A stretch of DNA of 64,000 nt from positions 6,133-70,132 of the forward strand of contig CAJUKJ010000007.1 of assembly GCA_910587365.1 (NCBI GenBank), given 5' to 3'. A program made the translations under genes and the position numbers. The notes below the pieces were generated by a model that did not search any database, was not told the origin of the DNA, and saw only the letters and a program-made list of their open reading frames with translations. This document shows positions 34,127 through 64,000 of this stretch, in pieces. Positions within the stretch are counted from its first letter, which is position 1. Each line of letters starts with the position of its first letter. Source of the DNA: an uncultured Christensenellaceae bacterium (lineage in GTDB: Bacteria > Bacillota > Clostridia > Christensenellales > Borkfalkiaceae).

Positions 34127-34141
34127 TAAATTGAGAATAAT

Positions 34142-35248
34142 ATGCGAAAAATAAGGATTTTGGTTGTTGTCGGTTCTCTTAGGGTTGGAGGACAAGAAAG
34201 AGTTGCTACAAGCATAGTTGAGTATATTGATAAGGAGAAGTTTCAAGTAGACTATTTAGTTTACGACGATATTGAAAGCTCAAATACGCAAACTGTAATT
34301 AATAACGGTGGAAAGTTAATAAGGGATAAAAATATATTTGCTGACCGTACAAAAATTGTTAAGCGTTTAACGAAGATTATAATAGATAACGGCCCTTATG
34401 ATATTGTACACTCACACGGAATGTTTAATAACGGTTACGTTATGCTTGCCTCAAAAAAAGCTGGGATAAAATGTCGCATAGCTCATTCCCATTCCACAAA
34501 TGCAGGAAAAAATACAAATAGCTTGGTGTACAAATTTTATATGATGCTAATGCGTTTTTATATGTTGAAATATGCAACTTCGATTGTAGCTTGTGGTACT
34601 CAAGCGGGAGAATTTCTATTTGGTAAAAGTGCTTTTAAAAAGTATGGTGGTATTTTTTATAATAGAATAGATTCGGATGTGTTTGAGTACTCTGAAACTC
34701 GTAAATTGAATTTGCGACAGAAGTTAAATATCACTAAGCATAAAATATTTATTATAGTAGGTCATATTATTCCTTTAAAAAATCATAGGTTTGCATTTCA
34801 AGTATTTGAAAAATACCATTCTATAAATCAAGATTCAGAATTGCTTATTCTAGGCGACGGGGAATTAAGACAAGAATTGGAGGAAGAAGTTGCAAGTAGG
34901 AATTTGAATGACAGTATCATATTTTTAGGTAACGTTAATAATGTTAACGAATATATGATTGTATCGGACTGTCTTTTAATGCCTTCTTGGTATGAGGGTT
35001 TACCTGTAACGCTTGTTGAGGCGCAATCTGCAGGGTTGCATTGTATAGTTTCCGATACTGTAACCAAAGAAGTAGATATTACTGGTTTAATAAGCTGGCG
35101 TAGTCTAGACGATTTAAGCGGTTGGGTAAAGGATATGCAGTCGGAATATAAACGTAAAAGTATGAAAGAAAAGATTGTTGAAAAGAATTACGATTTTTGT
35201 AATTATACTGAATGGTTAACAAATTTTTATTTTGATTTATTAAGGTAA
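34142..35248 (+). CDS. Glycosyltransferase, GT-B fold (GT4-like)
   Basis: MPSWYEGLPVTLVEAQSAGLHCIVSD, i.e. the EX7E region. Confidence 0.8.
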   Translation: MRKIRILVVVGSLRVGGQERVATSIVEYIDKEKFQVDYLVYDDIESSNTQTVINNGGKLIRDKNIFADRTKIVKRLTKIIIDNGPYDIVHSHGMFNNGYVMLASKKAGIKCRIAHSHSTNAGKNTNSLVYKFYMMLMRFYMLKYATSIVACGTQAGEFLFGKSAFKKYGGIFYNRIDSDVFEYSETRKLNLRQKLNITKHKIFIIVGHIIPLKNHRFAFQVFEKYHSINQDSELLILGDGELRQELEEEVASRNLNDSIIFLGNVNNVNEYMIVSDCLLMPSWYEGLPVTLVEAQSAGLHCIVSDTVTKEVDITGLISWRSLDDLSGWVKDMQSEYKRKSMKEKIVEKNYDFCNYTEWLTNFYFDLLR

Positions 35249-35257
35249 TAAATAAAA

Positions 35258-36673
35258 ATGAGTAATTTAAATGGTAAAGATAAAAGAATTGTTTATTGCA
35301 TTTTACTGATTGGTATTTCTTTTATATTATTTCTTTTTCTTAAATTAACTAATGAAAGTTTAAATTATCAGACATGGCTAACTGTTTTTGCTTTAACTGT
35401 ATTATTGACTTTTGTTTTAAATCTTATTTTTTTGCATTGTAGAGGTTATCGTTTAGTTTCCTTTTTTACTATATTTGTTGCACTTTTATATTTGTTTCAT
35501 TTTGGTCAAGTGATTTTATATGGAATTTTCCCAACATATAAAACATCGGGTTATAATTTCATTGCAAAAGGAGGACAAAGTGTCGTAGACGCATTATTGT
35601 TTTCTTATGTGATTATTAATTTCATTATATTAGGAGGGCTTTTAGTTAAAAAACGTAGTACAAGCAATGTTAGATTAGTTAGTAAAAAAAATTATAAGTT
35701 ATTAGCTCTAATATTTATTTGTATTTCGTTACCATTGCAGTTGTATATCGTAGTCAAACAACTTATTGTCAGTCATACAGAAGGATATAATGAGGTTTTA
35801 CATTTAGGATTAAGTGGAGCACTTACACAAATAGCAAATTTCTATATTATCGGTTTTGTTATGTTACTGATAATCTATAAAAATAATTTAATGAAAAAGA
35901 ATGTAATATTTGTATTGGAAGTAAGCTTTTTGCTTGTAAGTATGCTATCAGGAAGCCGAATATATGCAATGACTTCACTTCTTGTTTTAATTATTGTATA
36001 TTTCTACATTAGTAAAACTAGGTTGTATAGTAAACTTATATGGTGCATATTGTTGCTGATTATTATGCAATTTGTTGTTGCGATTGCAAAAGTTAGAGAA
36101 GTAGTCGGTGTAGATATATTTTTAATTATTAAAACGATGTTTGACCTAAATAATAATGCTATTCTATCTGTACTAGATGAATTTGGTAGCAGTATTGTAT
36201 CAGTTTATACTACTATAGAGCAAGTTCCTTCAAGCATGAATTATTCTTTCGGAATAACATATCTAAAATCATTGGCTGGTGTTTTTATAAATATTCCGGG
36301 AATAGATGTTTATGGCTTTGTTGATAGTGCTTGCTATATAAAGCAATTATCAGGTACTTTATCTTACGGTGGCAGCTTAATAGGTGAGCTTTACTTCAAC
36401 TTTGGTTTTATTTTATCTTTACCTGTGTCATTTTTGATTGGTTATGTTTCTGGATGTATAGATAGAAAGGCCGAAGTTTCCATTTTAAATGACTTCAACG
36501 TGGATTTGCTACTTTTAATAATGGTTATGTATACGCATTTTATTTGGGTTAGAGGATATTTCTCAAATATTATAAGAGCGGTTGCATGGTCGGCAATAAT
36601 AATATATTTGTTTTATTCCATTGTTAAATCAAAATCAGTTAGGAAGGAGGCAACTAAATGCAAACATGTGTAA
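35258..36673 (+). CDS. O-antigen/EPS polymerase (Wzy-like) polytopic membrane protein
   Basis: 471 aa with more than ten predicted TM helices, extremely AT-rich, located between glycosyltransferases and the flippase. Confidence 0.65.
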   Translation: MSNLNGKDKRIVYCILLIGISFILFLFLKLTNESLNYQTWLTVFALTVLLTFVLNLIFLHCRGYRLVSFFTIFVALLYLFHFGQVILYGIFPTYKTSGYNFIAKGGQSVVDALLFSYVIINFIILGGLLVKKRSTSNVRLVSKKNYKLLALIFICISLPLQLYIVVKQLIVSHTEGYNEVLHLGLSGALTQIANFYIIGFVMLLIIYKNNLMKKNVIFVLEVSFLLVSMLSGSRIYAMTSLLVLIIVYFYISKTRLYSKLIWCILLLIIMQFVVAIAKVREVVGVDIFLIIKTMFDLNNNAILSVLDEFGSSIVSVYTTIEQVPSSMNYSFGITYLKSLAGVFINIPGIDVYGFVDSACYIKQLSGTLSYGGSLIGELYFNFGFILSLPVSFLIGYVSGCIDRKAEVSILNDFNVDLLLLIMVMYTHFIWVRGYFSNIIRAVAWSAIIIYLFYSIVKSKSVRKEATKCKHV

Positions 36674-37719
36674 GCGTTATTATGTCATTATACAATACTC
36701 CAGCTGATTGGTTAAAAGCGGCTATGGATAGTATAATTCATCAGACTTATCAAGATTTTGAGTTTATAATATTTACAGATAAACCAACAGACGGATCGGA
36801 TAAAATTGTACATGAATATGCTAAAAAGGATCAAAGAATCAAGTTGATTGATAACAAAGTGAATGCCGGTTTAACAGTCAACTTATTCAATGCAGTGTTA
36901 ATGTCGAGGGGAAAATATATAGCAAGAATGGATAGCGACGATATAGCTTGCCTAGATAGATTTGCTAAACAAGTAAAGTATTTGGATATGCATTCTGATG
37001 TTGCCGTTGTTGGGTCAATGGTTAACGTGTTTTCGGATGCGGGATATTCTATAGGAATGGATAATTTGGGAAGTAATTCTGAGATAACAAAAATTAGAAT
37101 GCTTTTTGCTAATTCAGGTGTTGCTCATTCTAGTGCAATGATTAGAAAGGAATTTTTGATTACTAAAGGTATCAATTATAATATAAACTTTAAGAAATCT
37201 CAGGACTATGCCCTTTGGGTCGATGTGTTAAATAACGGCGGTAAGATTGCTGTTATTCCTGAAATACTTCTTGATTATCGAGTCCATGATAATCAAATAA
37301 GCAAGAAAAATAATTCGGAACAAAATGATTGCGCAAAGGAAATAATAAGGACACAGTTAATTAAGTTATTACCTGGTTTAACGAGCAATGAATTTAATGT
37401 ACATTTGGCTATTACTAATTTTACTACACATATAAAGAAAAAAGAATATGTTTCTTATATCAAAAAATTAATTAGAACTAACAATAAAGTAGGTTTATAT
37501 GAAAGGAAAGCTTTTAAAAAAGAAATATTTGCTTTATGGCAAAAAAACATTATTAAAGCGTGTAAATCGGGATATTTAAATTTTCTGTTTGGTATTTTAG
37601 CACTTAGAACTTTTAGTCCTAGTATAATAAGTTATAATATAGGCAAAGTTAAGAAGAGAATACGCAGTTCAAATATTTTGAAAAAATATTTGAGACAAAA
37701 GAAGAATTTGTATGAGTAA
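36658..37719 (+). CDS. Glycosyltransferase family 2
   Basis: VSVIMSLYNTP...IHQTYQDFEFIIFTD...ARMDSDD motifs. Confidence 0.85.
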   Translation: MQTCVSVIMSLYNTPADWLKAAMDSIIHQTYQDFEFIIFTDKPTDGSDKIVHEYAKKDQRIKLIDNKVNAGLTVNLFNAVLMSRGKYIARMDSDDIACLDRFAKQVKYLDMHSDVAVVGSMVNVFSDAGYSIGMDNLGSNSEITKIRMLFANSGVAHSSAMIRKEFLITKGINYNINFKKSQDYALWVDVLNNGGKIAVIPEILLDYRVHDNQISKKNNSEQNDCAKEIIRTQLIKLLPGLTSNEFNVHLAITNFTTHIKKKEYVSYIKKLIRTNNKVGLYERKAFKKEIFALWQKNIIKACKSGYLNFLFGILALRTFSPSIISYNIGKVKKRIRSSNILKKYLRQKKNLYE

Positions 37720-39268
37720 AAGTCAAAGTAAAATATTTTCATCTTTTATATGGAAATTTTTAGAGCAAGTGGCTACACAATTTACTGGCATAGTCTTTCA
37801 AATTTTACTTGCTAGGTTGTTAGATCCAAAAGATTTCGGCAATTTAGCAATTCTAATAACCTTTACAAATTTTGCCCTTATATTTATTCAGTCAGGCATA
37901 ACTGTTGCGTTAATACAAAAAAAAGAGTTGGAAGAGTATGATATCTGTTCGGTATTTCTTATTTGCTTGCTAATAGCTGCAGTATTGTATGTCGTCTTGT
38001 TTTTCTCTGCGCCTTTAATTGCTGGTTTTTATGAAGAACCTAATTTAGTAGGACCATTAAGGATTTTGTCAATTGTTCTTTTTATAGGGGCAATCAATTC
38101 AATCCAAATTGCCATATTAACTCGTGCGTTTAAATTTAAAATTATGTTTTTTTGTAATTTTATTTCCGCAATGTTATCTGGAACTATTGGTATTGTTTTA
38201 GCAATAAAAGGATATGGTATTTGGGCGTTAGTCTATCATACGCTTTTAAATAGAGCTATAGTAACAATAGTAATGGCATTCTTTGTAAGAGTTAAAATAA
38301 AAATTGGAATCTCCAGAAATAGTATTAAAAATATTTTCTCTTTTAGTATTAAGATTCTAGCGGCAAATTTGGTCTCTGGGACTTATGACTCATTTAGGAC
38401 TTTGATCATTGGCAAAAACTATTCAAAAGAGAAACTTGCTTATTACGATAAAGCATATACGTATTCTTCTTATATCTCTCAGCTATCTTCCAATTGTATA
38501 TCTGGTGTTTTGTTGCCTGTCTTTTCCGAAAAGCAAGATAATATTAACCAGTTAAAAGGAATGGTAAGGAAATCCGTTAGGTTAACATCCTTTTTAATGT
38601 TTCCCGTATTTATTGGCGTAGCGGTAATTGCGTATCCTTTTGTGATGGTATTGCTGACTGAAAAGTGGATCGACTGTGTTCCATTTCTAATAATCTTTTG
38701 TTTGTTACGTTTACCAGGATGTATAACACAGATTGATAAACAAATTCTTTATTCATTAAAAAAAGGTAGCGTGTGTCTAATTTATGAGATAATCATTTTG
38801 CTTTTAAATTTAGGTGCGGTATTTGCTTTTATTAATTTTGGTATAATTTATATCGCTCTTGCTGCTCTTGCGGTTGAATATATTGGTTTTATAGCATATT
38901 CCATAATTAGTTTTAAAATATACGGATATTCTTTAAGAGAAAGGATAATGGATATGGCAAGACCTTTAATAAGTACTTTAATAATGGTTGCAATAATATA
39001 TCCTATTAGCTTGATTCCAATGGATATTATCTGGATTTTGACGTTGCAAATTGTTTTTGGTATTGCATTTTATATTTTATTGACATATCTAATTGATAGG
39101 GAAGATTTTAATTACTTTCTTGAGAAAATTGCCAATATTTTTAAAAAGGCAAGCTCAAAAGCTAAATCGGAAAAAGAAGTCCATAATTGTCAAAATTTGA
39201 ACGAATCACAAGATAACGTAGATGAAAAGAAAGAAGATATTGTAGGAAATCGTGAAGATGATGAATAA
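37712..39268 (+). CDS. Polysaccharide flippase (Wzx, MOP superfamily)
   Basis: 518 aa with about 14 TM helices and a typical N-terminus (FIWKFLEQVATQFTGIVFQILLARLL). Confidence 0.8.
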   Translation: MSKSQSKIFSSFIWKFLEQVATQFTGIVFQILLARLLDPKDFGNLAILITFTNFALIFIQSGITVALIQKKELEEYDICSVFLICLLIAAVLYVVLFFSAPLIAGFYEEPNLVGPLRILSIVLFIGAINSIQIAILTRAFKFKIMFFCNFISAMLSGTIGIVLAIKGYGIWALVYHTLLNRAIVTIVMAFFVRVKIKIGISRNSIKNIFSFSIKILAANLVSGTYDSFRTLIIGKNYSKEKLAYYDKAYTYSSYISQLSSNCISGVLLPVFSEKQDNINQLKGMVRKSVRLTSFLMFPVFIGVAVIAYPFVMVLLTEKWIDCVPFLIIFCLLRLPGCITQIDKQILYSLKKGSVCLIYEIIILLLNLGAVFAFINFGIIYIALAALAVEYIGFIAYSIISFKIYGYSLRERIMDMARPLISTLIMVAIIYPISLIPMDIIWILTLQIVFGIAFYILLTYLIDREDFNYFLEKIANIFKKASSKAKSEKEVHNCQNLNESQDNVDEKKEDIVGNREDDE

Positions 39269-40304
39269 TGGAAACATTAAATTACCGCAATTTAATTTTA
39301 AATATAATTATGTATTTTTTAATTATTATGATAATCCTAACAAGATTATGGAGGATGGGTATTACAATATTTGTTTGCGGGATTTAAAATGTTTAAAAAA
39401 TGTACAATTAGTTTCGTTTCCCCTTGATAAAAGAAATAGATTTGAAAGATTTCTTTATCGAATTAATCATTCTTATAAATTGAATAAAGTAGTAAATCTT
39501 CCTTTTAAAAAGGCTTGGTATCATCTTTATTTTGATGAAAAATATTTTAAAGAAAAGAAACCATATTGCTTTGTTGCAATTGGTCCGTATATTACCATCG
39601 ACTATATAGTGTATTTGAAAAAGAAATATCCGGATGCTAAGTTTGTAAAAGTTCATAGGGATTTAGTGGAGGTGTATCAGAGAGGAAGTCCAGAATGGAC
39701 TGATGACAAGTTGAGACAGTACTTTGATTTATGGATGTCTTATGATAAGAATGAGGCTTTAAAGAAGGGAATGATTCATTTTAATGAATTTGAATCCAAA
39801 ATTGATATAAAAAAAACTGAATGGAATCAGTCGGATTTGTTTTTTGCTGGCGTGGCTAAAAATAGGTTGGATATTATAATGTCTGTTTATGAGCGATTTA
39901 TGTCATTAGGCAAAAAATGTGACTTTTATTTAGTAGGTGTCGATGAAAGTCGGAGAATTGACAGACCAGGTTTAATATATGCAGACAAGTTTCTACCATA
40001 CAGAGAAGTTCTTTTAAGATCAATTAACTCTAATTGTATTCTAGAAGTTAATCAACAGGGAGCAATAGGATATACTGCTAGATTTTTAGAAGCAGTTATT
40101 TATAACAAAAAATTAATAACCAACAACTTTGATGTAAAAAAGTCGAAATTTTATAATCCGCAGTATATAAAATGTTTCAAAAATGCAAATGAAATTGACT
40201 CCAACTTTATTTTAGATAATAAATCAATAGATTATCGCTATAATGGAGAATTTTCTCCAATCAACTTATTGTTACAAATTGAAGATGAACTTAATAAATT
40301 ATAA
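39252..40304 (+). CDS. Uncharacterized polysaccharide-locus protein (possible glycosyltransferase-like)
   Basis: A long ORF with no recognisable motif. Its C-terminal half has a GT-B-like layout (DLFFAGVAKNRLD...). The start is ambiguous (GTG 39252, ATG 39258 or ATG 39261). Confidence 0.5.
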   Translation: MKMMNNGNIKLPQFNFKYNYVFFNYYDNPNKIMEDGYYNICLRDLKCLKNVQLVSFPLDKRNRFERFLYRINHSYKLNKVVNLPFKKAWYHLYFDEKYFKEKKPYCFVAIGPYITIDYIVYLKKKYPDAKFVKVHRDLVEVYQRGSPEWTDDKLRQYFDLWMSYDKNEALKKGMIHFNEFESKIDIKKTEWNQSDLFFAGVAKNRLDIIMSVYERFMSLGKKCDFYLVGVDESRRIDRPGLIYADKFLPYREVLLRSINSNCILEVNQQGAIGYTARFLEAVIYNKKLITNNFDVKKSKFYNPQYIKCFKNANEIDSNFILDNKSIDYRYNGEFSPINLLLQIEDELNKL

Positions 40305-40331
40305 TTTTACGATTTTTTTGAGAGGTATCAT

Positions 40332-41462
40332 ATGATTCAAGTATTTCAACCTACTTTGGGAAAGGAAGAGCTTAAAAGTTTAGAAACGGTTTTTAATTCA
40401 AATTGGATAGGAAAAGGTAAACTAGTTGATAAATTTGAAGGCTTATTTGCAGAGCATTTAGGCAGTACGCCTAATCATGTTTTGACTACAAATTGTTGTA
40501 GTGAAGGTCTGTTTTCTTCAATGCCTTTATGCAATATAAGTAAAGACGATGAAGTTATTTTACCTACAATTAGTTTTATCGGGGCAGGTAATGCTGTTTG
40601 TGCGAACGGTTCCAAAATGGTGCTTTGTGATGTCGATAAAAGAACATTGAACGCAAGACCTGAAGATATTGAGAAGGTTATAACCAAAAAAACTAAAGCA
40701 ATTTTGCTTTTACACTATGGGGGTATACCCTGCGATATGGATTCAATAATGAGTCTGGCTAAGACATATAACTTGAAAGTAATTGAAGACTGTGCTGCGG
40801 GTGTCTGTTCAACATATAATGGAAAAGCTTTAGGAACTTTTGGTGATATTGGTATGTGGTCGTTTGATGCTATGAAGATTCTTGTATGTGGCGACGGAGC
40901 TTGTTTACATTTTAGAGATCCTGAATTGAGGGAAAAAGCAGAAAAGCTACTTTATTTTGGTTTGCAAACAAAAAGCGGTTATCAAAATAGCGTGGCGCAA
41001 AAGTGGTGGGAATTTGATATTTCTTGTTTTGGACATAGAGCGATAATGAATGATTTGACAGCGGCTATTGCTATTGAGCAATATAAGAAATTGCCGACCT
41101 ATATGCAAAAGAGAGCAGCCGTACACAAATTTTATGATAGTAATTTAAATAATATAGAATGGCTTGATTTGCCTTTGCCAATTCCTGAAGGATGTGAAAC
41201 TTCATATTATTTTTATCATATACAAATAAAAAATGGTAAAAGGGATTTGTTGGCAAAATATTTACGAGAAAAAGATATTTATACGACATATAGATATTTT
41301 CCGTTGCATAGAGTTCCTGGGTATAAAGTTGGGGGAGTGTACCCTAATGCGGATTATGCTGCCGATAATACTTTATGTCTTCCTATGCACCAGAGCTTGT
41401 CGGTAAATGATTTGGAATATATTGTAGACACAATTCAAGAATTCGACAAGAAATATTGTTAA
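40332..41462 (+). CDS. DegT/DnrJ/EryC1-family sugar aminotransferase (WecE-like)
   Basis: WSFDAMKIL PLP-lysine region and typical length. It is adjacent to the rml genes. Confidence 0.85.
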   Translation: MIQVFQPTLGKEELKSLETVFNSNWIGKGKLVDKFEGLFAEHLGSTPNHVLTTNCCSEGLFSSMPLCNISKDDEVILPTISFIGAGNAVCANGSKMVLCDVDKRTLNARPEDIEKVITKKTKAILLLHYGGIPCDMDSIMSLAKTYNLKVIEDCAAGVCSTYNGKALGTFGDIGMWSFDAMKILVCGDGACLHFRDPELREKAEKLLYFGLQTKSGYQNSVAQKWWEFDISCFGHRAIMNDLTAAIAIEQYKKLPTYMQKRAAVHKFYDSNLNNIEWLDLPLPIPEGCETSYYFYHIQIKNGKRDLLAKYLREKDIYTTYRYFPLHRVPGYKVGGVYPNADYAADNTLCLPMHQSLSVNDLEYIVDTIQEFDKKYC

Positions 41463-41475
41463 TATTGAGATTTAT

Positions 41476-42357
41476 ATGAAAGGAATTATTTTGGCGGGTG
41501 GTAGCGGAACAAGACTTTATCCGTTGACGAAAATCACAAGTAAACAACTTTTGCCTATATATGATAAACCGATGATTTACTATCCATTATCTACACTAAT
41601 GCTTGCAGGGATAAGGGACATTTTAATTATATCAACGCCTTCCGATTTGCCTAACTTTGAGCGGTTGCTTGGTGACGGAAGTGATTACGGTATAAAGCTT
41701 AATTATAAAATTCAATCACGTCCGGAAGGGCTTGCGCAGGCTTTTATTATAGCTGAAGATTTTATTGGAAGTCAGCCGTGCGCAATGGTTTTAGGTGATA
41801 ATATTTTTTATGGCGGTGGGCTTGGAGATAGACTGAAAGAGGCTGCTGAGAATGCTGAAAATGGGTTAGCAACTGTATTTGGCTACTATGTTAACGATCC
41901 TAAGCGATTTGGTATAATGGAACTTAGTGACAACGGAAAAATTTTATCGGTTGAAGAAAAACCAAATGAGCCTAAATCAAACTATGCTATTACGGGTTTA
42001 TATTTTTATCCGGGGGGCGTAAGCAAGAAGGCTCATAGTGTAAAAAAATCTAAACGTGGCGAATATGAAATAACAACTCTTAATGATATATATTTGAAAA
42101 AATCATTATTGCATGGCATAATTTTAGGACGTGGCTTTGCTTGGCTTGATACAGGCACAATGGATAGTTTAATTGAGGCTTCGGAATTTGTGCAAATGCT
42201 TGAAAAAAGGCAGGGTGTAAAGATCTCTGCAATTGAAGAGATTGCTTACCGTAAGGGTTGGATATCTAAGGAAAAACTTTTGGAAGCTGCAGAAAAATAT
42301 GGGAAATCACCTTATGGAGAGCATCTGAAAAATGTTTCTGAAGGCAAAATAATATGA
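41476..42357 (+). CDS. rfbA: Glucose-1-phosphate thymidylyltransferase
   Basis: MKGIILAGGSGTRLYPLT...SKQLLPIYDKPMIYYPLS. Confidence 0.95.
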   Translation: MKGIILAGGSGTRLYPLTKITSKQLLPIYDKPMIYYPLSTLMLAGIRDILIISTPSDLPNFERLLGDGSDYGIKLNYKIQSRPEGLAQAFIIAEDFIGSQPCAMVLGDNIFYGGGLGDRLKEAAENAENGLATVFGYYVNDPKRFGIMELSDNGKILSVEEKPNEPKSNYAITGLYFYPGGVSKKAHSVKKSKRGEYEITTLNDIYLKKSLLHGIILGRGFAWLDTGTMDSLIEASEFVQMLEKRQGVKISAIEEIAYRKGWISKEKLLEAAEKYGKSPYGEHLKNVSEGKII

Positions 42358-42911
42358 ATAATTTTGACTTTATTAAGACTGCTATAGATGGTGTGATTAT
42401 AATCGAATCTAAAGTATTTGGTGACGAACGAGGCTATTTTACCGAGACTTATAATCAGGAAGAGTTTAGAGCTAATGCTTTAAACTATGTTTTCGTGCAG
42501 GATAATCAATCCAGAAGCAAAAAGGGTGTATTACGCGGATTACATTTTCAAAAGACTTATCCGCAGGCGAAGCTTGTGCGCGTATTAGAGGGTGAAGTTT
42601 TTGATGTGGCTGTGGACTTGCGAAAAGGAAGTGCTACTTATGGGAAATGGGTAGGTGTTGTGCTTTCAGGAGGGAATAAAAAACAGTTAATGATTCCGCG
42701 CGGGTTTGCTCATGGTTTTTTGGTGTTGTCCGATACGGCGACATTTTGCTATAAATGCGACGAATTTTATCACCCTGAAGACGAAGGGGGTATCATTTGG
42801 AACGATCCCGATATTGCAATTGACTGGGGTAATCTTTCTGATGTTCTTCTCAGTGAAAAAGATAAAAAACACCCAATGTTAAAAGAAAGTGGGGTTGTAT
42901 TTGATTTATGA
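42354..42911 (+). CDS. rfbC: dTDP-4-dehydrorhamnose 3,5-epimerase
   Basis: FGDERGYF...GVLRGLHFQ...AKLVRV..GEVFDVAVDLR...PRGFAHGF. Confidence 0.9.
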   Translation: MNNFDFIKTAIDGVIIIESKVFGDERGYFTETYNQEEFRANALNYVFVQDNQSRSKKGVLRGLHFQKTYPQAKLVRVLEGEVFDVAVDLRKGSATYGKWVGVVLSGGNKKQLMIPRGFAHGFLVLSDTATFCYKCDEFYHPEDEGGIIWNDPDIAIDWGNLSDVLLSEKDKKHPMLKESGVVFDL

Positions 42912-43939
42912 AACAAATTATTATAGTGACTGGTGGTGCCGGGTTTATTGGTAGCAACTTTATCTTTTATATGATTAAAAAACATCCCGAGTATAGGATT
43001 GTTTGTCTGGACAAGCTGACCTATGCGGGCAATCTTTCTACGCTCAAAGAAGTGATGGACAACCCTAACTTCTGCTTCGTTAAGGCTGATATATGCGACA
43101 GGGAAGCGGTGTTTAAGCTTTTTGAAGAGGAAAAGCCCGACTTGGTTGTCAACTTCGCTGCGGAAAGCCACGTTGACAGGAGCATTGAAGACCCTGGCAT
43201 TTTCCTTCAAACCAACATTATAGGCACGGCAACGCTTATGGACGCTTGCCGCAAGTACGGCATCAAGCGTTATCATCAGGTTTCCACCGACGAGGTTTAC
43301 GGCGATTTACCTCTTGACAGGCCCGATTTGTTTTTCACGGAAGCCACGCCTATTCATACGAGCAGTCCTTATTCTTCGAGCAAGGCTTCGGCGGATTTGC
43401 TCGTGTTGGCATATTATAGGACGTACGGCTTGCCCGTTTCGATTAGCCGCTGCTCTAATAACTACGGACCTTATCATTTCCCTGAAAAACTCATTCCGCT
43501 TATGATAGCCAACGCGTTGAACGATAAGGAGTTGCCGATATACGGCAATGGTGCAAACGTGCGTGACTGGCTGTATGTCGAGGATCACTGCAAGGCGATT
43601 GATCTTATTATCCATAAGGGCAGATTGGGGGAAGTGTATAACGTCGGCGGTCATAATGAGATGGCGAATATCGATATTGTCAAGCTCATTTGTAAAGAGC
43701 TTGGTAAGCAACCCGAAAGCCTTATTAAATACGTTGCGGACAGAAAGGGACACGATATGCGTTATGCAATTGACCCGACAAAAATTCACAATGAATTGGG
43801 TTGGCTGCCTGAAACTAAGTTTGTGGACGGCATAAAAAAGACGATAAAATGGTATCTTGAAAACCGCAGCTGGTGGGAAGAAATCATTTCCGGAGAGTAC
43901 CAAAATTATTATCAAAAAATTTATGGGGATAGAAAATAA
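42908..43939 (+). CDS. rfbB: dTDP-glucose 4,6-dehydratase
   Basis: VTGGAGFIGSNF, HQVSTDEVYG and YSSSKASADLLV motifs. Confidence 0.95.
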   Translation: MKQIIIVTGGAGFIGSNFIFYMIKKHPEYRIVCLDKLTYAGNLSTLKEVMDNPNFCFVKADICDREAVFKLFEEEKPDLVVNFAAESHVDRSIEDPGIFLQTNIIGTATLMDACRKYGIKRYHQVSTDEVYGDLPLDRPDLFFTEATPIHTSSPYSSSKASADLLVLAYYRTYGLPVSISRCSNNYGPYHFPEKLIPLMIANALNDKELPIYGNGANVRDWLYVEDHCKAIDLIIHKGRLGEVYNVGGHNEMANIDIVKLICKELGKQPESLIKYVADRKGHDMRYAIDPTKIHNELGWLPETKFVDGIKKTIKWYLENRSWWEEIISGEYQNYYQKIYGDRK

Positions 43940-43948
43940 AAAATAAAT

Positions 43949-45037
43949 ATGTTTCAGTCAAAAACAATTTTAGTTACGGGTGCTGCAGGATTTATTGGTG
44001 CTAACTTGATTTTATCATTGTTTAAAAATTATCGTAATATTAATATTATAGGTGTTGATAACATTAATGACTATTATGATATATCGTTAAAAGAATATAG
44101 ACTTACTTTAATCGACGAACAAATAAGAAATGAAACTTCTAATTGTTGGACATTTGTAAAAGGCAATATTGCAGATAAGCAACTTATTGAGAATCTTTTT
44201 TCTAAATTTAATCCAGCATTTGTAGTAAATCTCGCTGCACAGGCAGGTGTTAGATACTCTATATCTAATCCAGATGCGTACATCGAGGCGAATCTTATAG
44301 GATTTTATAATATCTTAGAAGCTTGTCGTCATTCTTATGATAACGACAAAGGTGGGGTACAGCATCTTATCTATGCCTCATCTTCAAGCGTTTATGGTAG
44401 CAATGAAAAAGTACCGTATTCTACGGACGATAAAGTAGACAATCCTGTTTCTCTTTATGCGGCGACAAAAAAGAGCAATGAGTTAATGGCTCATGCTTAT
44501 TCAAAGTTATATAATATTCCTTCAACGGGATTGCGCTTTTTTACGGTATATGGTCCTGCGGGGAGACCCGATATGGCATATTTCGGCTTTACGAATAAGT
44601 TGCGTGAAGGAAAAACAATAGAAATATTCAATTACGGCAACTGTAAGCGCGATTTCACATATATCGACGATATCGTGGAGGGGGTTATACGTGTAATTCA
44701 GAAACCTCCCGAACGAATATTGGGTAAAGATGGTTTGCCTATTCCGCCGTATAAAGTTTATAACATTGGGAATAGTAACCCTGAAAACTTGTTGGAGTTT
44801 GTAGATGTTTTACAGCAAGAATTAATTCGTGCAAAGGTCTTACCTGAGGATTATGATTTTGAAAAACATAAAATACTTGTGCCTATGCAAGCGGGTGACG
44901 TGCCTATAACCTATGCCGATACTACACCTTTGGAAAAAGATTTCGGGTTTAGACCGAATACGCCGTTAAGAGAAGGGCTTAGCCGTTTTGCCGATTGGTA
45001 CTATGAGTTTTATTTAAAAGGGAAAGAGGTAAATTAA
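43949..45037 (+). CDS. NAD-dependent sugar epimerase (UDP-glucuronate 4-epimerase-like)
   Basis: VTGAAGFIGANL and YAATKKSNELMAH. It is paired with ugd immediately downstream. Confidence 0.8.
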   Translation: MFQSKTILVTGAAGFIGANLILSLFKNYRNINIIGVDNINDYYDISLKEYRLTLIDEQIRNETSNCWTFVKGNIADKQLIENLFSKFNPAFVVNLAAQAGVRYSISNPDAYIEANLIGFYNILEACRHSYDNDKGGVQHLIYASSSSVYGSNEKVPYSTDDKVDNPVSLYAATKKSNELMAHAYSKLYNIPSTGLRFFTVYGPAGRPDMAYFGFTNKLREGKTIEIFNYGNCKRDFTYIDDIVEGVIRVIQKPPERILGKDGLPIPPYKVYNIGNSNPENLLEFVDVLQQELIRAKVLPEDYDFEKHKILVPMQAGDVPITYADTTPLEKDFGFRPNTPLREGLSRFADWYYEFYLKGKEVN

Positions 45038-46270
45038 ATGAAAATTGCGGTAGCGGGAACAGGATACGTCGGTTTATCTTTGGCTGTATTGCTTGCGCAA
45101 AATAACGAGGTTATTGCCGTTGACGTAGTGCCTGAAAAAGTTGAACTTATTAATCAGAAAAAATCGCCTATTCAGGATGAATATATTGAAAAATATCTTA
45201 TAGAAAAAGAATTGAATTTGGTAGCTACGCTAGATGCTGAAAAGGCATATCAAAATGCGGAAATAGTTGTGATTGCCGCTCCCACTAATTATGACAGTCA
45301 GAAAAACTATTTTGATACTTCTGCTGTAGAAACTGTAATTGAGCTTGTTATCAAAAATAATCCTAACGCAATTATGGTAATAAAGTCTACGATACCTGTA
45401 GGATATACCGAAAGTATTAGAAAAAAAATGGGAAGCAAAAATATTATTTTCAGTCCTGAATTTTTGCGTGAGAGTAAAGCACTATACGATAATTTATATC
45501 CAAGCAGAATAATAGTCGGAACGGATTTAAGTGATACGAAATTGATTAATATTTCACAAACATTTATCGAGCTATTAAAGCAAGGTGCTATTAAGAAAGA
45601 TATAGAAACTCGAATAATGGGACTTACCGAAGCAGAAGCTGTAAAGCTGTTTGCAAATACTTATCTTGCGCTTCGTGTATCTTATTTTAATGAACTCGAC
45701 ACATATGCTGAGATGAAAGGACTTGATACTAAAGCAATTATTGACGGTGTATGCTTAGATCCGCGTATAGGAATGCATTATAATAATCCGTCTTTTGGCT
45801 ACGGTGGATATTGTTTACCCAAAGATACCAAACAACTTTTGGCAAATTATGCGGACGTTCCTGAAAATTTAATAGGAGCAATTGTTGAATCAAATCGAAC
45901 AAGAAAAGATTTTATCGCTGACAGAGTTTTGGAATTGGCGGGATATTACAGCAAAAACGGCGAGTATTCCGCAGAAAAGGAAAGGAAAGTGGTTATAGGC
46001 GTTTATCGTTTGACTATGAAAAGCAATTCAGACAATTTCAGACAAAGCTCGATTCAAGGGGTTATGAAGCGTATAAAGGCAAAAGGTGCTAAAGTTATTG
46101 TTTATGAACCTACATTAAGTGACGGCGATACTTTTTTTGGTAGTTTAATAGTTAATAATTTGCAAAAATTTAAAGATTTAAGCAATGCTATTATAGCGAA
46201 TAGATACGATAGTTGTTTAGCTGAAGTTAAGTTTAAAGTATATACAAGAGATATATATTTGCGAGATTAA
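45038..46270 (+). CDS. ugd: UDP-glucose 6-dehydrogenase
   Basis: [28 protein letters not shown] and [14 protein letters not shown]. Confidence 0.9.
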
Positions 46271-51458: not shown

Positions 51459-51498
51459 AAAATATTTCATATCGTATATATACGATATGAAATATTTT
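51459..51498. repeat. Perfect 40-bp palindrome (candidate operator)
   Basis: AAATATTTCATATCGTATA | TATACGATATGAAATATTT. I checked it base by base from the centre at 51478/51479. It sits between a TTGACA box (51446-51451) and the GGAGG RBS of the next ORF. Confidence 0.9.
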
Positions 51499-51509: not shown

Positions 51510-53477
<1,968 letters not shown>

Positions 53478-58886: not shown

Positions 58887-59831
58887 ATGCAATATAAATA
58901 TTGGCTAAAAGAATGGCTTGAATGTTATGTCAAGCCTACATCTAAACGCAAAACTTATATAAGGTATTCGGAAATAATAACGGGACACTTAATGGGTACA
59001 CTCGGGAATTATGAGATGAACGCCTTGACTCCGCTCATATTGCAACGCTTCACAAAGGAGCTTTTACATAACGGAAATATAAAAACAGGGAAGGGTCTTT
59101 CGGCAAATTCGGTAAACGGCATAATAACCGTAATCCAGAACTCGTTAAAAGAGGCTTGTGCCATAGGGCATATAACTGAATATACGGCGGATAAAATTAA
59201 ACGTCCAAAGGTAAGAGAAAAACAGATAACGAGCTTTACACCCGCCGAACAGAAATTAATAGAACATGCAGTTTTAAGCGGTAAAAAATCTAAGATGTTC
59301 GGGGTGGTATTGTGCCTTTATACCGGCTTGCGCATAGGCGAACTTCTCGCGTTGGAATGGAAGGACATAGATTTCAGTAATGGAACAATCTCTGTTACGA
59401 AAACTTGTTACGATGGAAAGGACAATAACGGCAAATACACCCGCATAACAGATACACCCAAAACGCCGACTTCGCAAAGGGTAATTCCATTTCCAAAGCA
59501 ATTAATATCTTATTTAAAGAGTGTAAGAAAACAAGATAAATCTGATTTTGTAGTTTCTTCCGGTTCAAACAAGTCATTATCCGTAAGGGCATATCAGCGT
59601 AGTTTCGAATTGCTTTTGAAAAAATTAAATATTTCGCATAAGGGATTTCACGCGCTTCGCCATACCTTTGCGACGCGTGCGCTCGAATGCGGAATGGATG
59701 TAAAAACCCTTTCGGAAATACTCGGTCATAAAAATGCTACGGTAACTTTGAACAGATATGTACACAGCCTTATGGAGCATAAGAAAGATATGATGAACCG
59801 TGTAGGTAAGTTATTTACTATGGCAGTTTGA
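58887..59831 (+). CDS. Tyrosine site-specific recombinase (phage integrase family)
   Basis: TGLRIGELLAL (Arg I), HALRHTFAT (HxxR), LGH and NRYVH (catalytic Tyr), plus an N-terminal SAM-like core-binding domain. Confidence 0.85.
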   Translation: MQYKYWLKEWLECYVKPTSKRKTYIRYSEIITGHLMGTLGNYEMNALTPLILQRFTKELLHNGNIKTGKGLSANSVNGIITVIQNSLKEACAIGHITEYTADKIKRPKVREKQITSFTPAEQKLIEHAVLSGKKSKMFGVVLCLYTGLRIGELLALEWKDIDFSNGTISVTKTCYDGKDNNGKYTRITDTPKTPTSQRVIPFPKQLISYLKSVRKQDKSDFVVSSGSNKSLSVRAYQRSFELLLKKLNISHKGFHALRHTFATRALECGMDVKTLSEILGHKNATVTLNRYVHSLMEHKKDMMNRVGKLFTMAV

Positions 59832-59839
59832 TAAAGTAA

Positions 59840-59869
59840 TGGCGGCATCGGTAATTTTACCGATGCCGC
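59840..59869. other. 11-bp GC-rich hairpin after the recombinase gene
   Basis: GGCGGCATCGG / CCGATGCCGCC. There is no clear U-run on either strand. Confidence 0.5.
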
Positions 59870-59875
59870 CAATTG

Positions 59876-60046
59876 TCATCTAATACAATAATAGGTGGAA
59901 TTAAAGTATTCTTATTATATATCATTATGAACTAAAACGCAATAGATTATTAAAAACTTTCTCAAATCTGCAAGAAAAAAAGTCATATTATCTTCAAATA
60001 GGTGGTTGTTACTCATAAAAAGCAACCACCTATTATTGTATTAGGT
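59876..60046. repeat. 22-bp inverted repeats (21/22 match) flanking a 127-bp segment
   Basis: IRL is CATCTAATACAATAATAGGTGG (59876-59897). IRR is CCACCTATTATTGTATTAGGTG (60025-60046). A third partial copy, ATAGGTGGTTG (59997-60007), pairs with IRR to form a hairpin. Confidence 0.85.
59913..59941 (-). promoter_or_regulatory. Near-consensus promoter TTGCGT-17-TATAAT inside the IR-flanked segment, pointing away from the helicase gene
   Basis: On the minus strand: TTGCGT (59936-59941), 17-nt spacer, TATAAT (59913-59918). A second, weaker TTGCAG-16-AATAAT lies just upstream on the same strand. Confidence 0.55.
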
Positions 60047-60079
60047 GAACGTTTACGAAAGTAATTTGTACATCTAAAA

Positions 60080-62446
60080 ATGGCTAAATTCGAATTGTTT
60101 TCTCACAATTTAACAGCTTATCGGGCAGCGGTTGAAATGCTTGCCGAAACGGGCAAGGCGGCTATTATCCATCCCACGGGGACGGGTAAGTCTTTTATTG
60201 CTTTTAAGTTGTGCGAGGATAATGCGGATAAGCATATTTTATGGTTAAGCCCAAGCGAGTATATTTTCAAAACACAGCTTGAAAATCTGAGAGCGATTTC
60301 AAACGGCTACGTTCCTGAAAATATCGTTTTCTATACCTACGCTAAGCTCACGTATATGAGTGAAAAAGAAATCGAAAATATCAAGCCCGACTATATCATT
60401 TTGGACGAATTTCACCGTTGCGGTGCCGAAGTATGGGGAAAGGGTGTTCAGTCTGTTTTAGATACTTTTGCGGGCGTGCCTGTTCTTGGACTTTCTGCAA
60501 CGAATATCCGTTATTTGGATAACCAGCGAGATATGGCGGACGAATTATTTGAAGGCAACGTGGCAAGTGAAATGACGCTTGGCGAGGCAATAGTCAGAGG
60601 TATACTCAATCCGCCCAAGTATGTGCTTTCGGTATTTCAGTATAAGAAGGATGTACAAAAGTACAGCAAGCGCGTTCATAACGCAAAGAGTAAAGCCGTG
60701 CGTGACGAGGGCGAAAAGTTATTGGATAAGCTTCGCCGCGCGTTGGAAAATGCGGACGGATTACCGCAGATATTCAAAAAGCATATTCCCGTTCAAAACG
60801 GAAAGTATATCGTGTTCTGCGCCAATGTAGAACATATGACTGAAATGGTATCGCACGTTGACGAGTGGTTCGGCGACATAGACAGCAATCCGCACGTATA
60901 TAAAGCATATTCGGATGACCCCGAAACGAGCAAAGCGTTTGCAGGCTTTAAAAAGGATAACAGCGAACACTTAAAGTTGCTGTTCTGTATAGATATGCTC
61001 AATGAGGGAGTACACGTAGAGGACGTGAACGGCGTTATTCTTTTGCGCCCTACCGTATCGCCTATTATTTATAAACAGCAAATAGGACGTGCGCTTTCCG
61101 CAAGTAAGACAACCAATGCCGTTATATTCGACGTTGTAATGAATATCGAAAACCTGTATTCGATAGGAACAGTTCAAAACGAAATGCAGGTAGTTATTGG
61201 CTATTACCGCGAACACGGCATGGAAGACAGCATAATCAACGATCGTTTTAAAATCGTGGATGAAGTGCGCGATTGTGTGCAGCTGTTTGAAAAACTTAAC
61301 GATACGTTGGTTGCGTCTTGGGACTATATGTTTGCGGAGGCTAAAAAGTATTACGACTTAAACGGCAATTTGGAAGTACCCAAACGCTATAAGACGGACG
61401 AGGGATATTCACTCGGCAGTTGGTTAATGACGCAACGTAAAGTGCGCAGAGGAGAACAGTTCGGAATACTCGGCGAGGACAGAATTAAAAAGCTTGACAG
61501 CATAGGTATGGTTTGGGAGAGCTTCCGTGATTTGTCCTGGAACAGATACTACGATGCGGCTTTAAGCTATTATACCCAACACGGCGATTTAAAAGTTCCC
61601 GCGCAGTATGTTAAGGACGGTATAAAGCTCGGTTCATGGCTTTCCAATTTGCGTACTTACCGTAAATGCGGAGCGCAGAGCAATTACCTTACGGAAGAGA
61701 GAATTGCCGCACTGGATAGTATAGGAATGATATGGGACGTTTTGGATATGTTGTGGCAACGCAACTATGCTGCGGCGAAATTATATTTTGAACAGTATGG
61801 TAATCTTGACGTTTCCGTTGAGTACGTCAATGAAAACGGAGTTAAGCTTGGCGTTTGGCTGAATAACCTGCGAAATGCATATAAGGGTAAGTCGGGCGGT
61901 TACCGCCTTACGCAGGAGCAAATAGATGCTTTGACGAATATCGGTATGACATGGACTTGCAAGTTTGAAAGAGCTTGGGAGTGCGGTTATGCGCAGGCAG
62001 AGCAGTATTTTGCAGAATACGGCGACTTGAACGTTCCCGCAACTTATGCAACAAAGGACGGGTATATGCTCGGGCGTTGGCTTGATAGACAGCGTGAGCG
62101 TAAAGACAAGCTTTCTCAGGATAGAGTTGAAAGGTTGAATGCGCTTGGAATGGTTTGGGATAAGCCCGATTCTTGGGAAGTGCGTTATGCGCTTGCAAAG
62201 CAGTATTTTGACGAACACGGCAATTTGAACGTTCCGCCTAAATATATTGCGGACGGAGTATGGCTCAATAAGTGGCTTAACGAGCAGAAGCATATTTATC
62301 TCGGCAAGCGCAAAGGTAAGAGTTTAACCGCAGACCAAATAAAAAGACTTAACGCAATCGGTATGCGTTGGGGTAAGAGTGAAAGGGTTGTAGCCATTCC
62401 AAATATAAAAATAGCAAACGATAGAAAGAGAGCGATTGGCGTATGA
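60080..62446 (+). CDS. Superfamily-2 DEAD/DEAH-type helicase with five C-terminal helicase-associated (HA) repeats
   Basis: HPTGTGKS (motif I), ILDEFHRCG (motif II), SATN and QQIGRALS (motif VI). Five units of about 65 aa follow, each of the form W..Y..A..Y....G.L.VP..Y...G..LG.WL...R......L...R...L..IGM.W. Confidence 0.8.
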   Translation: MAKFELFSHNLTAYRAAVEMLAETGKAAIIHPTGTGKSFIAFKLCEDNADKHILWLSPSEYIFKTQLENLRAISNGYVPENIVFYTYAKLTYMSEKEIENIKPDYIILDEFHRCGAEVWGKGVQSVLDTFAGVPVLGLSATNIRYLDNQRDMADELFEGNVASEMTLGEAIVRGILNPPKYVLSVFQYKKDVQKYSKRVHNAKSKAVRDEGEKLLDKLRRALENADGLPQIFKKHIPVQNGKYIVFCANVEHMTEMVSHVDEWFGDIDSNPHVYKAYSDDPETSKAFAGFKKDNSEHLKLLFCIDMLNEGVHVEDVNGVILLRPTVSPIIYKQQIGRALSASKTTNAVIFDVVMNIENLYSIGTVQNEMQVVIGYYREHGMEDSIINDRFKIVDEVRDCVQLFEKLNDTLVASWDYMFAEAKKYYDLNGNLEVPKRYKTDEGYSLGSWLMTQRKVRRGEQFGILGEDRIKKLDSIGMVWESFRDLSWNRYYDAALSYYTQHGDLKVPAQYVKDGIKLGSWLSNLRTYRKCGAQSNYLTEERIAALDSIGMIWDVLDMLWQRNYAAAKLYFEQYGNLDVSVEYVNENGVKLGVWLNNLRNAYKGKSGGYRLTQEQIDALTNIGMTWTCKFERAWECGYAQAEQYFAEYGDLNVPATYATKDGYMLGRWLDRQRERKDKLSQDRVERLNALGMVWDKPDSWEVRYALAKQYFDEHGNLNVPPKYIADGVWLNKWLNEQKHIYLGKRKGKSLTADQIKRLNAIGMRWGKSERVVAIPNIKIANDRKRAIGV

Positions 62447-62739
62447 TTGAAAAGATTCTATTTGCTGACAGCGAATTATGCGCTGAGGAAGTTAAAAAAC
62501 TGTTTATCAAGGCGATTTGTGTTCCTAAAACAGTAATCACGGAAGAAGAAATTACCGAAAAAAATGACAATGCAGTTATCTGTTTATCCAATGGTTCCGA
62601 TTATACTTCCGTAGCTAAAAACCTTAATGCGCTTGGATATAAAACTGTTTTATTGGCTTATACCGATGAATTGTTAAAAGAAAAGATAGACAACAGTGAT
62701 TTGGAAAAACACGGATATAAATTTGAAGATGGAGTGTAG
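62443..62739 (+). CDS. Small hypothetical protein (98 aa)
   Basis: ATGA overlap with the helicase stop suggests translational coupling. No family recognised. Confidence 0.5.
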   Translation: MIEKILFADSELCAEEVKKLFIKAICVPKTVITEEEITEKNDNAVICLSNGSDYTSVAKNLNALGYKTVLLAYTDELLKEKIDNSDLEKHGYKFEDGV

Positions 62740-62741
62740 AT

Positions 62742-63956
62742 ATGAATATTAAATTTTCGCCGCCTGACATCTCGGAATCAGAAATACAAGAGGTTGCCGA
62801 AGCGTTAAGGTCGGGATGGATTACAACCGGACCGAGAGTGAAAAAACTTGAAAAATTAATCGCAGAATATGTGGATACTCCGAAATGTGTATGTCTTAAT
62901 TCGCAAACGGCTTGTGCTGAAATGGCTTTACGCATTCTTGGAATAGGCGAAGGCGACGAGGTAATTACGTCGGCATATACATACACCGCAACGGCTTCGG
63001 TAGTATGTCATGTCGGGGCAAAACTTGTACTTGTAGACACACAAAAAGACAGCCTTGAAATGGATTATGACGCTGTACAGTCTGCAATTACCGAACGCAC
63101 GAAGGCAATTATTTCCGTTGATTTAGGCGGTGTTCCGTGCGATTACGATAGAATTTTCGATATAGTAAACAGCAATAGAAAACTGTTTAAGCCTAATAAC
63201 GATATACAAAAAGCAATAGGGCGGATAGCTGTTTTAGCCGATACTGCCCACGCTTTTGGGGCGGAATGGCACGGAAAAAAAGTAGGCAGTATAGCGGATT
63301 TTTCAGCGTTTAGTTTTCATGCAGTTAAAAATTTTACAACGGGTGAAGGCGGTGCGCTTACTTGGCAACATATCGAAGGCGTTGATGATGAGGAGATTTA
63401 TCATCAATTGCAGTTACTGTCTTTACACGGACAGAGCAAAGACGCACTTGCAAAAACTCAGCTTGGAGCATGGGAGTACGACATTATCGGTACTTGGTAC
63501 AAATGCAATATGACCGATGTTGCAGCTGCTATGGGGTTGACACAGTTTGAACGTTATCCGCAAATGTTAAAGCGTCGGCGCGAAATAATCGAAAAATACG
63601 ATAATGCGTTTAAGCCGTCGGGCATAAAAGTTTTAACTCACTATTCTAAAAAATACTCTTCGTCGGGACATTTGTATATAACGCGAGTACCTAATATAAC
63701 TGCCGAACAGCGTAGTGAAATAATTACGCTTATGGCGCAAAAGGGCATTGCTTGCAATGTGCATTATAAGCCGCTTCCGATGCATACGGCTTATAAACAA
63801 CTCGGTTTTGATATAAGGAATTTTCCCAACGCTTATGCGCAGTATGCAAATGAAATTACTCTGCCTTTACACACTTGCCTTACCGATGAGGAAGTGGATT
63901 ATATAATCGAAAACTATTGCGAAATTGTTACCGAGTATTTGTATGCTGATTTGTAA
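62742..63956 (+). CDS. DegT/DnrJ/EryC1-family sugar aminotransferase
   Basis: SFHAVKNFTTGEGGA PLP-lysine region and a typical N-terminus (FSPPDISESEIQEV..LRSGWITTGP). Confidence 0.85.
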   Translation: MNIKFSPPDISESEIQEVAEALRSGWITTGPRVKKLEKLIAEYVDTPKCVCLNSQTACAEMALRILGIGEGDEVITSAYTYTATASVVCHVGAKLVLVDTQKDSLEMDYDAVQSAITERTKAIISVDLGGVPCDYDRIFDIVNSNRKLFKPNNDIQKAIGRIAVLADTAHAFGAEWHGKKVGSIADFSAFSFHAVKNFTTGEGGALTWQHIEGVDDEEIYHQLQLLSLHGQSKDALAKTQLGAWEYDIIGTWYKCNMTDVAAAMGLTQFERYPQMLKRRREIIEKYDNAFKPSGIKVLTHYSKKYSSSGHLYITRVPNITAEQRSEIITLMAQKGIACNVHYKPLPMHTAYKQLGFDIRNFPNAYAQYANEITLPLHTCLTDEEVDYIIENYCEIVTEYLYADL

Positions 63957-64000
63957 ATGGGAAAAGCTTCCCGAAGAGATGAAAAATGACGCCGTTTATC
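63943..64000 (+). CDS. 5' end of an ORF (possibly a sugar transferase); 3' end lies outside the window
   Basis: The ATG at 63943 overlaps the previous gene. It reads MLICKWEKLPEEMKNDAVY, which resembles N-termini of clostridial bacterial sugar transferases as I recall them. Very little sequence is available. Confidence 0.35.
   Translation, partial: MLICKWEKLPEEMKNDAVY

Follow-up and report, generated by a model that had tools for sequence, protein, structure and literature searches.

We found that the window, the whole 64,000-nt stretch of DNA analysed here, very probably carries a working DNA-inversion switch, or inverton, whose inverting promoter controls a polysaccharide operon. An earlier note on the same sequence had proposed such a promoter switch, and its proposal is supported by the presence of both orientations in public assemblies, by a conserved promoter and hairpin, and by a second lineage in which both forms were again observed. 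The features of the switch and the gene upstream of it are as follows.

58887..59831, plus strand: tyrosine recombinase, presumed invertase (314 aa; Pfam Phage_int_SAM_3 and Phage_integrase)
59832-60079: intergenic region that holds the switch, between two plus-strand genes
59840..59871, no strand assigned: stem-loop between recombinase and switch, with 15-nt complementary arms (-27.9 kcal/mol) and a T-rich tail on the minus strand
59876..59898: left inverted repeat (IRL), 23 nt, imperfectly palindromic, its two half-sites flanking an asymmetric centre
59899..60025: invertible segment, 127 nt, whose exact reverse complement is seen in contigs L001/L026, L004 and L025
59914..59942, minus strand: main promoter of sigma-70 type, TTGCGT-17-TATAAT (TTGCGT at 59942..59937, TATAAT at 59919..59914)
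59915-60016, minus strand: 33-aa ORF inside the segment, reported by gene callers and probably spurious
59946..59973, minus strand: weaker promoter-like site, TTGCAG-16-AATAAT (consensus match only)
59997..60034, plus strand: junction hairpin, in which a third copy of the half-site inside the segment (59997-60008) pairs with the inner part of IRR; the stem is followed by TATTATTGTATT
60026..60048: right inverted repeat (IRR), 23 nt, from the repeat search

In the repeat search of the window, IRL and IRR were complementary at 22 of 23 positions, the one mismatch being the T at 59879, whose IRR counterpart on the complementary strand is C. Allowing up to three mismatches, the 23-mer has only two sites in the 64-kb window, IRL and IRR themselves, and it was matched in 0 of 100 shuffles of the sequence, with zero matches expected by chance. 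The window-wide search returned no other long, well-matched, spaced inverted repeat, and an Rfam search of the intergenic region found nothing near any gathering score. The earlier note had described 22-bp repeats at 59876-59897 and 60025-60046 with 21/22 complementarity, separated by 127 bp. The repeat pair and the 127-nt spacing both hold, but the arms are 23 nt long and 22/23 complementary, and the right arm lies 1-2 nt from where it had been placed. Similarly, the adjacency of the repeats to the two genes was as described, with corrected distances: 44 nt rather than 45 from the end of the recombinase ORF at 59831 to IRL, and 31 nt rather than 34 from IRR to the helicase ATG at 60080. The strand of the 33-aa ORF relative to its neighbours provides a handy orientation marker in annotated assemblies.

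Public assemblies were retrieved through exact look-ups of the recombinase, the DegT aminotransferase and the 33-aa ORF, and were oriented by the recombinase gene. Twelve independent assemblies of the same sequence type were found. Nine have the segment as in the window (ERR4129510, GCA_948636035.1, GCA_949074055.1, GCA_948877335.1, SRR22941763, GCA_948735245.1, GCA_948521485.1, SRR35271092 and SRR35271102), and three have the exact reverse complement of 59899-60025 (GCA_948651345.1, SRR18038151 and GCA_948834195.1). All 12 have both repeats unchanged and flanks identical to those of the window; in L001-L004, where longer flanks were compared, the 100% identity extends over 199 nt to the left and 275 nt to the right. 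The comparison of assemblies also showed that the mismatch between IRL and IRR remains with its flank in both orientations, so the crossover lies inside that position, which would fit, as expected, strand exchange at the centre of a core site. The earlier note had held that a single orientation in the data would speak against a switch; the split of nine assemblies to three, together with a second lineage that has both forms, is the opposite. In that second lineage, whose helicase is 72% identical, the promoter points toward the recombinase in three contigs and toward the helicase in two. The inverted, helicase-facing form was also observed in nine contigs of a lineage with a 90%-identical recombinase, and in the sister-species MAG Christensenella sp. 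MGBC110736 (~87% DNA identity). Pumilibacter, L070 and L076 each showed a single orientation among the few contigs seen.

These orientation differences lie between samples and were read from consensus contigs. The two orientations could then be old, fixed strain differences left by a one-off inherited inversion, with no ongoing phase variation, and the nine contigs of the 90%-identical lineage, which share one orientation, fit that reading as well. We consider it improbable, since the flanks and 1 kb of the helicase gene are identical between the two forms, both forms recur in the second lineage, and an intact recombinase is kept beside the repeats across lineages. In addition, the contig of GCA_948612065.1 stops exactly at the last base common to both forms (...AATAGGTGG), at the inner edge of IRL. 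An assembly graph would branch at this base if one sample held both forms, which suggests mixing within a clone. Small contigs of the opposite orientation from the same sample were sought through the 33-aa ORF, and none was present among the matches listed. Switching would presumably take place within a clone.

Several contigs from the related lineages have structures of their own at the switch. The MGBC110736 copy (L011:1880-2190) contains a ~116-nt tandem duplication, giving two promoter copies with a 17-nt partial right repeat between them and three repeat copies overall; the duplication could be real or an effect of assembly. In the second polymorphic lineage (L084:4985-5014), the right repeat overlaps the helicase ATG, so that inversion alters the bases just upstream of it, to AAGAG in the ON form and to no such motif in the OFF form. 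A Pumilibacter-type contig (L068:3175-3300, ENA ERZ12802901) has lost the left inverted repeat and the hairpin through a deletion between two GCCTAA direct repeats. Its promoter is left facing the helicase, and this may be a locked-ON variant.

The main promoter points at the recombinase gene in the window and at the helicase after inversion, when it lies on the plus strand ~75 nt upstream of the helicase ATG. Its -35 box is weak, matching the consensus at only 3 of 6 positions. With its promoter directed away from the helicase, the copy in the window is rightly read as "OFF", as the earlier note had it. The note's TTGCGT-17-TATAAT promoter was recovered on the minus strand, 1 nt from the 59913-59941 given for it, and its weaker TTGCAG-16-AATAAT site was found as described. 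A consensus scan of 59832-60079 also agreed with the note that there is no comparable plus-strand promoter in this region, the best candidate being a poorly spaced TTGTTA-19-TATTAT. No clear Shine-Dalgarno sequence was seen at the helicase ATG. Across the wider family described below, an outward near-consensus promoter occurs at the same end of the segment in all 11 switch instances from eight lineages, often with an extended -10 (TGn). L070 has a perfect TTGACA-17-TGnTATAAT, and the -35 box of Pumilibacter has the same position as that of the window, 107 of 173. Reading from the sequence, we expect that transcription would start inside the segment and follow its orientation, giving ON/OFF expression.

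The junction hairpin had been described as 11 bp formed by 59997-60007 with IRR. It is present, but larger, with 12 perfect pairs between 59997-60008 and 60023-60034, and an RNA fold gives 14 pairs at -19.1 kcal/mol. In the OFF form its place is just ahead of the helicase, and inversion carries it upstream of the promoter, to IRL, where the earlier note had predicted it and where it is seen in the inverted assemblies. Its OFF-form location makes it a candidate OFF-state terminator ahead of the helicase. The terminator scan did not call it, because its loop is long (10-14 nt) and its tail only moderately T-rich. Hairpins with a third half-site are also visible in the Pumilibacter, L070, L076 and L084 switches, with differing sequences and loops of 4-14 nt; this variation argues for a folding element and against a recombination site with fixed spacing. 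The second, terminator-like structure, the stem-loop at 59840-59871, would end recombinase transcripts before they reach the switch, and would keep antisense transcripts of the OFF-state promoter out of the recombinase gene.

A related possibility is that the segment does invert, but that its main output is a cwpV-like terminator that, depending on orientation, acts on transcripts begun at an outside promoter, or is antisense tuning of the recombinase. The cwpV switch is a precedent for this, the hairpin upstream of the helicase in the OFF form is conserved, and Acholeplasmatales-type relatives have a fixed promoter that reads into the switch. That promoter, TTGACT-17-TACAAT, is made up of a conserved ATTGACTA box outside the repeat (L012:5595-5660, L017:2105-2170 and L006:4420-4460) and a -10 inside it, and reads toward the recombinase; the window has no equivalent. 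Since no outside plus-strand promoter was found here, a strong stem-loop parts the recombinase gene from the switch, and a near-consensus promoter is conserved inside every family member, we regard a purely terminator or antisense output as decidedly improbable. With promoter inversion as the preferred reading, the junction hairpin may well supplement the effect of the promoter instead of standing in for it.

All six catalytic residues of the recombinase are present (R149, K192, H255, R258, H281 and Y291) and align with those of Tn1549 Int, which is also its closest solved structure. None of the curated NCBIfam families was reached. An invertase of FimB/FimE type was rejected on scores of 29.7 bits against a cutoff of 222 for NF007371 and 17.7 against 221 for NF007370. 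Its position and intact active site suggest that the adjacent recombinase would perform the inversion. A protein search returned more than 7400 homologs at E <= 1e-20, named only "site-specific integrase" and coming from Lachnospiraceae, Clostridia and Pumilibacter. The adjacent switch was checked in eight lineages, and in all eight the recombinase homolog lies beside a cognate repeat pair. Homologs of 60-81% identity share a layout in which a pair of 18-30 nt repeats, tens of bases past the recombinase stop, flanks 104-133 nt. The repeats beside homologs of 45-81% identity have the consensus CACCTAWTA..TAWTAGGTG. In other genomes with the repeat 19-mer, recombinase homologs of 43-48% identity lie beside pairs with the same core (ACAATAATAGGTGG). 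Each repeat of the family reads as an imperfect palindrome, the form expected of a tyrosine-recombinase core site.

Searches with the repeat itself also returned matches that we attribute to chance. The JGI metagenome matches to a degenerate form of the 19-mer were single in 36 of 36 cases, with neither a second repeat nor a nearby recombinase, and exact 19-mers in Pelagibacteraceae, Saccharibacteria, Chitinophagaceae, Bacillaceae and the unclassified MAG L015 were likewise single and unpaired, with no recombinase near. The 23-nt repeats are presumably shorter than the k-mers of final assembly stages, and, if so, each junction needs real reads to be assembled. It is highly improbable, and already largely refuted, that the inverted form is an assembly artefact or that the repeats bound a small mobile element; the earlier note had thought that repeats ending a longer, multi-copy element would count against a switch. 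Inverted repeats can confuse assemblers and the 19-mer is present in several genomes, but different pipelines recovered the inverted form, in three assemblies drawn from NCBI MAGs and Logan. The repeat occurs just twice in the window and at a single locus in the sister genome, the segment has flipped in situ, the stray matches are unpaired, and a plasmid search gave no match.

Downstream of the switch, the window contains the start of an operon. Its genes, and a second polysaccharide locus elsewhere in the window, are as follows.

60080..62446, plus strand: SF2 helicase with five HA repeats (helicase-HA; Pfam ResIII and Helicase_C), heading the downstream operon
62443..62739, plus strand: 98-aa ORF, overlapping the helicase stop codon
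62742..63956, plus strand: DegT-type aminotransferase (Pfam)
63943..64000, plus strand: start of an initiating sugar transferase (Bac_transf), first 58 nt, cut by the window end
29457-46270, plus strand: second Wzx/Wzy polysaccharide locus (DegT, GT1, Wzy, flippase, DegT, epimerase, UDP-sugar dehydrogenase)

Longer contigs (L018 and L024) continue past Bac_transf with GT2, a UDP-glucose/GDP-mannose dehydrogenase, GT2, a 440-aa ORF, GT2, a Branch-family transferase, a 607-aa protein, GT1 and a Polysacc_synt flippase. The 440-aa ORF has no Pfam match and is possibly the polymerase. The downstream genes overlap or abut on the same strand, and the operon comprises at least 13 genes. The earlier note had named the helicase, the small ORF, the DegT aminotransferase and the sugar transferase; these members are right, but the operon extends well beyond them. 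By its predicted gene content, it is a complete Wzx/Wzy-type surface polysaccharide locus. The second locus, at 29457-46270, has neither a helicase-HA lead gene nor a repeat pair. The 98-aa ORF belongs to no family in Pfam, NCBIfam or PADLOC, and its Pumilibacter counterpart is 91 aa long.

The helicase motifs (Walker A, DEFH, SAT and QQIGRA) are invariant in 44 homologs, and the motor domain of its structural model resembles RadD, XPB and SauUSI. The structure search returned generic SF2 motors only and gave no information on the HA repeats. A known defence protein was considered and rejected, the similarity to PbeA and type IV restriction enzymes being weak and at the level of the motor. In each of the five lineages examined (51-100% identity), the helicase-HA homolog leads a polysaccharide locus and has a tyrosine recombinase upstream. 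Homologs range from ~750 to 1270 aa, and the number of repeats varies. A literature search returned no paper linking the HA-repeat helicase domain to invertons or polysaccharide loci.

Several irregularities were observed in and around these genes. In L003/L020 (GCA_949074055.1, OFF), the helicase was called as two ORFs of 390 and 416 aa, which is either a frameshift (pseudogene) or a sequencing error. In the OFF strains L020, L021 and L023, the locus is interrupted after a GT2 gene (lengthened to 421 aa), ~3.8 kb past the window end, by a gene for a 558-aa large serine recombinase (Resolvase, Recombinase, Zn_ribbon and DUF4368), which suggests insertion of a mobile element. All three disrupted strains are OFF, a number too small to interpret. 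Among L089-L098 (SRR10089987-SRR10090103), from the lineage with the 90%-identical recombinase, 8 of the 10 contigs shown break off at one common base that lies 114 nt into the helicase gene, within the Walker A coding sequence, a pattern suggestive of several near-identical paralogs of helicase-HA in the communities or genomes concerned. L079 (3605-4972) has a 455-aa ORF directly upstream of its helicase-HA gene, an odd fusion of PglD_N/Hexapep domains with a weak match to Phage_integrase, and two further integrase genes lie upstream of it. Elsewhere in the window, a truncated serine recombinase ORF (52600-53163) has a perfect 40-nt palindrome upstream of it, at 51459-51498 (AAAATATTTCATATCGTATA / TATACGATATGAAATATTTT).

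It was observed that recombinase similarity does not track cargo across the family. The 81%-identical recombinase adjoins an FtsK/SpoIIIE gene with an LHH toxin gene downstream, the 75%-identical one adjoins an unknown 170-aa gene, and those of 68% and 60% identity precede helicase-HA genes, as in the window. The Acholeplasmatales-type relatives have the switch upstream of the recombinase, facing either a DndC-like PAPS reductase with DUF4007 or a D12 methyltransferase with GmrSD. In one of these MAGs, Acholeplasmatales BRZ_KG bin78, the end of contig L006 and the start of contig L014 share 77 nt at the repeat, a sign that the assembly graph branched at the switch. Its cargo (D12 methyltransferase, a 133-aa ORF and GmrSD) may form a phase-variable defence locus.

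Since helicase-HA leads the locus in every lineage examined and its repeat number varies, it may not be a bystander. A tentative and rather unlikely extension of these observations is that helicase-HA is a locus-specific factor for expressing long operons, and that recombinase and switch together form a portable regulatory cassette with varied cargo. The helicase could act, for example, as a transcription processivity factor or as a regulator between loci. If so, it would play in Clostridia the part that UpxY/UpxZ play in Bacteroides, or that of RfaH, with a DNA translocase as its core, and the cassette would be coupled to glycan loci, to a type VII secretion-like toxin locus, and to Dnd-like or GmrSD defence genes. 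Both the helicase-HA lead gene and the portable cassette architecture seem undescribed.

In the mechanism we propose for promoter inversion, the adjacent tyrosine recombinase would bind both 23-nt repeats, each a palindrome-like core site, and exchange strands at their centres, flipping the 127-nt segment. The segment carries an outward sigma-70 promoter near one end and, near the other, the hairpin made of the extra half-site and the inner half of the repeat. In the OFF state, the promoter would fire toward the recombinase gene and be halted by the stem-loop at 59840-59871, and the junction hairpin and its T-rich tail, lying just ahead of the helicase, could block read-through. In the ON state, the promoter would face the helicase and drive the operon of at least 13 genes, making the surface polysaccharide.

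Phase-variable capsules are central to the persistence of Bacteroides in the gut and to its evasion of phage and immunity. To our knowledge, far less has been established about phase-variable capsules in gut Clostridia, most of which are uncultured. The present reading, reached from public data alone, is of a Clostridia commensal that would flip a promoter ahead of a complete polysaccharide locus. The habitat appears to be the mouse gut, because the sister MAG has MGBC in its name, which we take to stand for a mouse gut catalogue, and the cultured relative Pumilibacter comes from the mouse intestinal collection. The compact cassette, present in all eight lineages checked, is widespread and attached to different surface or defence cargo, and its presence in cultured Pumilibacter isolates offers a testable model; Pumilibacter muris and P. 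intestinalis have the homologous switch (L064/L065). It also raises the question of what an HA-repeat helicase does at the head of glycan operons.

Several known systems resemble the proposed switch in part. Like fimS of E. coli, which is inverted by FimB and FimE, it is a short invertible segment with a promoter for surface-structure genes, as in ON/OFF phase variation, and the tyrosine recombinase gene just upstream is transcribed toward it. It differs from fimS in the length of the repeats (23 nt here, 9 bp in fimS) and of the segment (127 nt against 314 bp), in having one adjacent recombinase, not of Fim type, instead of two, and in its cargo, a polysaccharide operon. The cwpV switch of C. 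difficile also belongs to the class Clostridia, and is inverted by a tyrosine recombinase, RecV, at imperfect repeats of ~21 nt. Its OFF-state terminator is a stem-loop at the junction of repeat and segment; the promoter is located outside that segment, and termination is the sole means of control. A stem-loop is found at the same junction in the OFF form here, in a putative terminator role. A switch of cwpV type was nevertheless rejected, the promoter here lying inside the segment and no outside plus-strand promoter having been found. RecV, which is not linked to its switches, acts on several of them; the recombinase here adjoins a single switch.

The capsular polysaccharide promoters of Bacteroides, inverted by Mpi or by locus-adjacent Tsr recombinases, are similar in that promoter inversion in a gut commensal controls whole polysaccharide loci, several per genome; in the present case, a second locus lies within the window. 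Most of these promoters are flipped by the serine recombinase Mpi, are of Bacteroidota type, and precede upxY and upxZ as the first genes. The Bacteroides system was rejected as a direct match, given the tyrosine-type recombinase and the lead genes found here, helicase-HA and the 98-aa ORF. Phylum and promoter type also differ, and the first gene here is an SF2 helicase with HA repeats.

Finally, a recent survey of hCom2, a defined human gut community, tightly links Clostridia inverton group 139 to tyrosine invertase group 35 (PMC11892184). As described in the passages of that paper on the group, 32 of its 33 members are intergenic, they come from 17 strains, nearly all have a tyrosine recombinase gene close by, and their orientation shifted during passaging (PMC11892184). 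Compared by description only, these intergenic invertons of gut Clostridia near tyrosine recombinases resemble the switch of the window, and groups 139 and 35 may represent the same or a sister family (PMC11892184). The two segments quoted in those passages are longer (~205 and ~228 nt), and the passages mention no link to a helicase or to polysaccharide (PMC11892184). Taken by analogy with these systems, the mechanism here would be inversion of a promoter as in fimS, carried out by the neighbouring tyrosine recombinase, with a junction hairpin like that of cwpV in addition.
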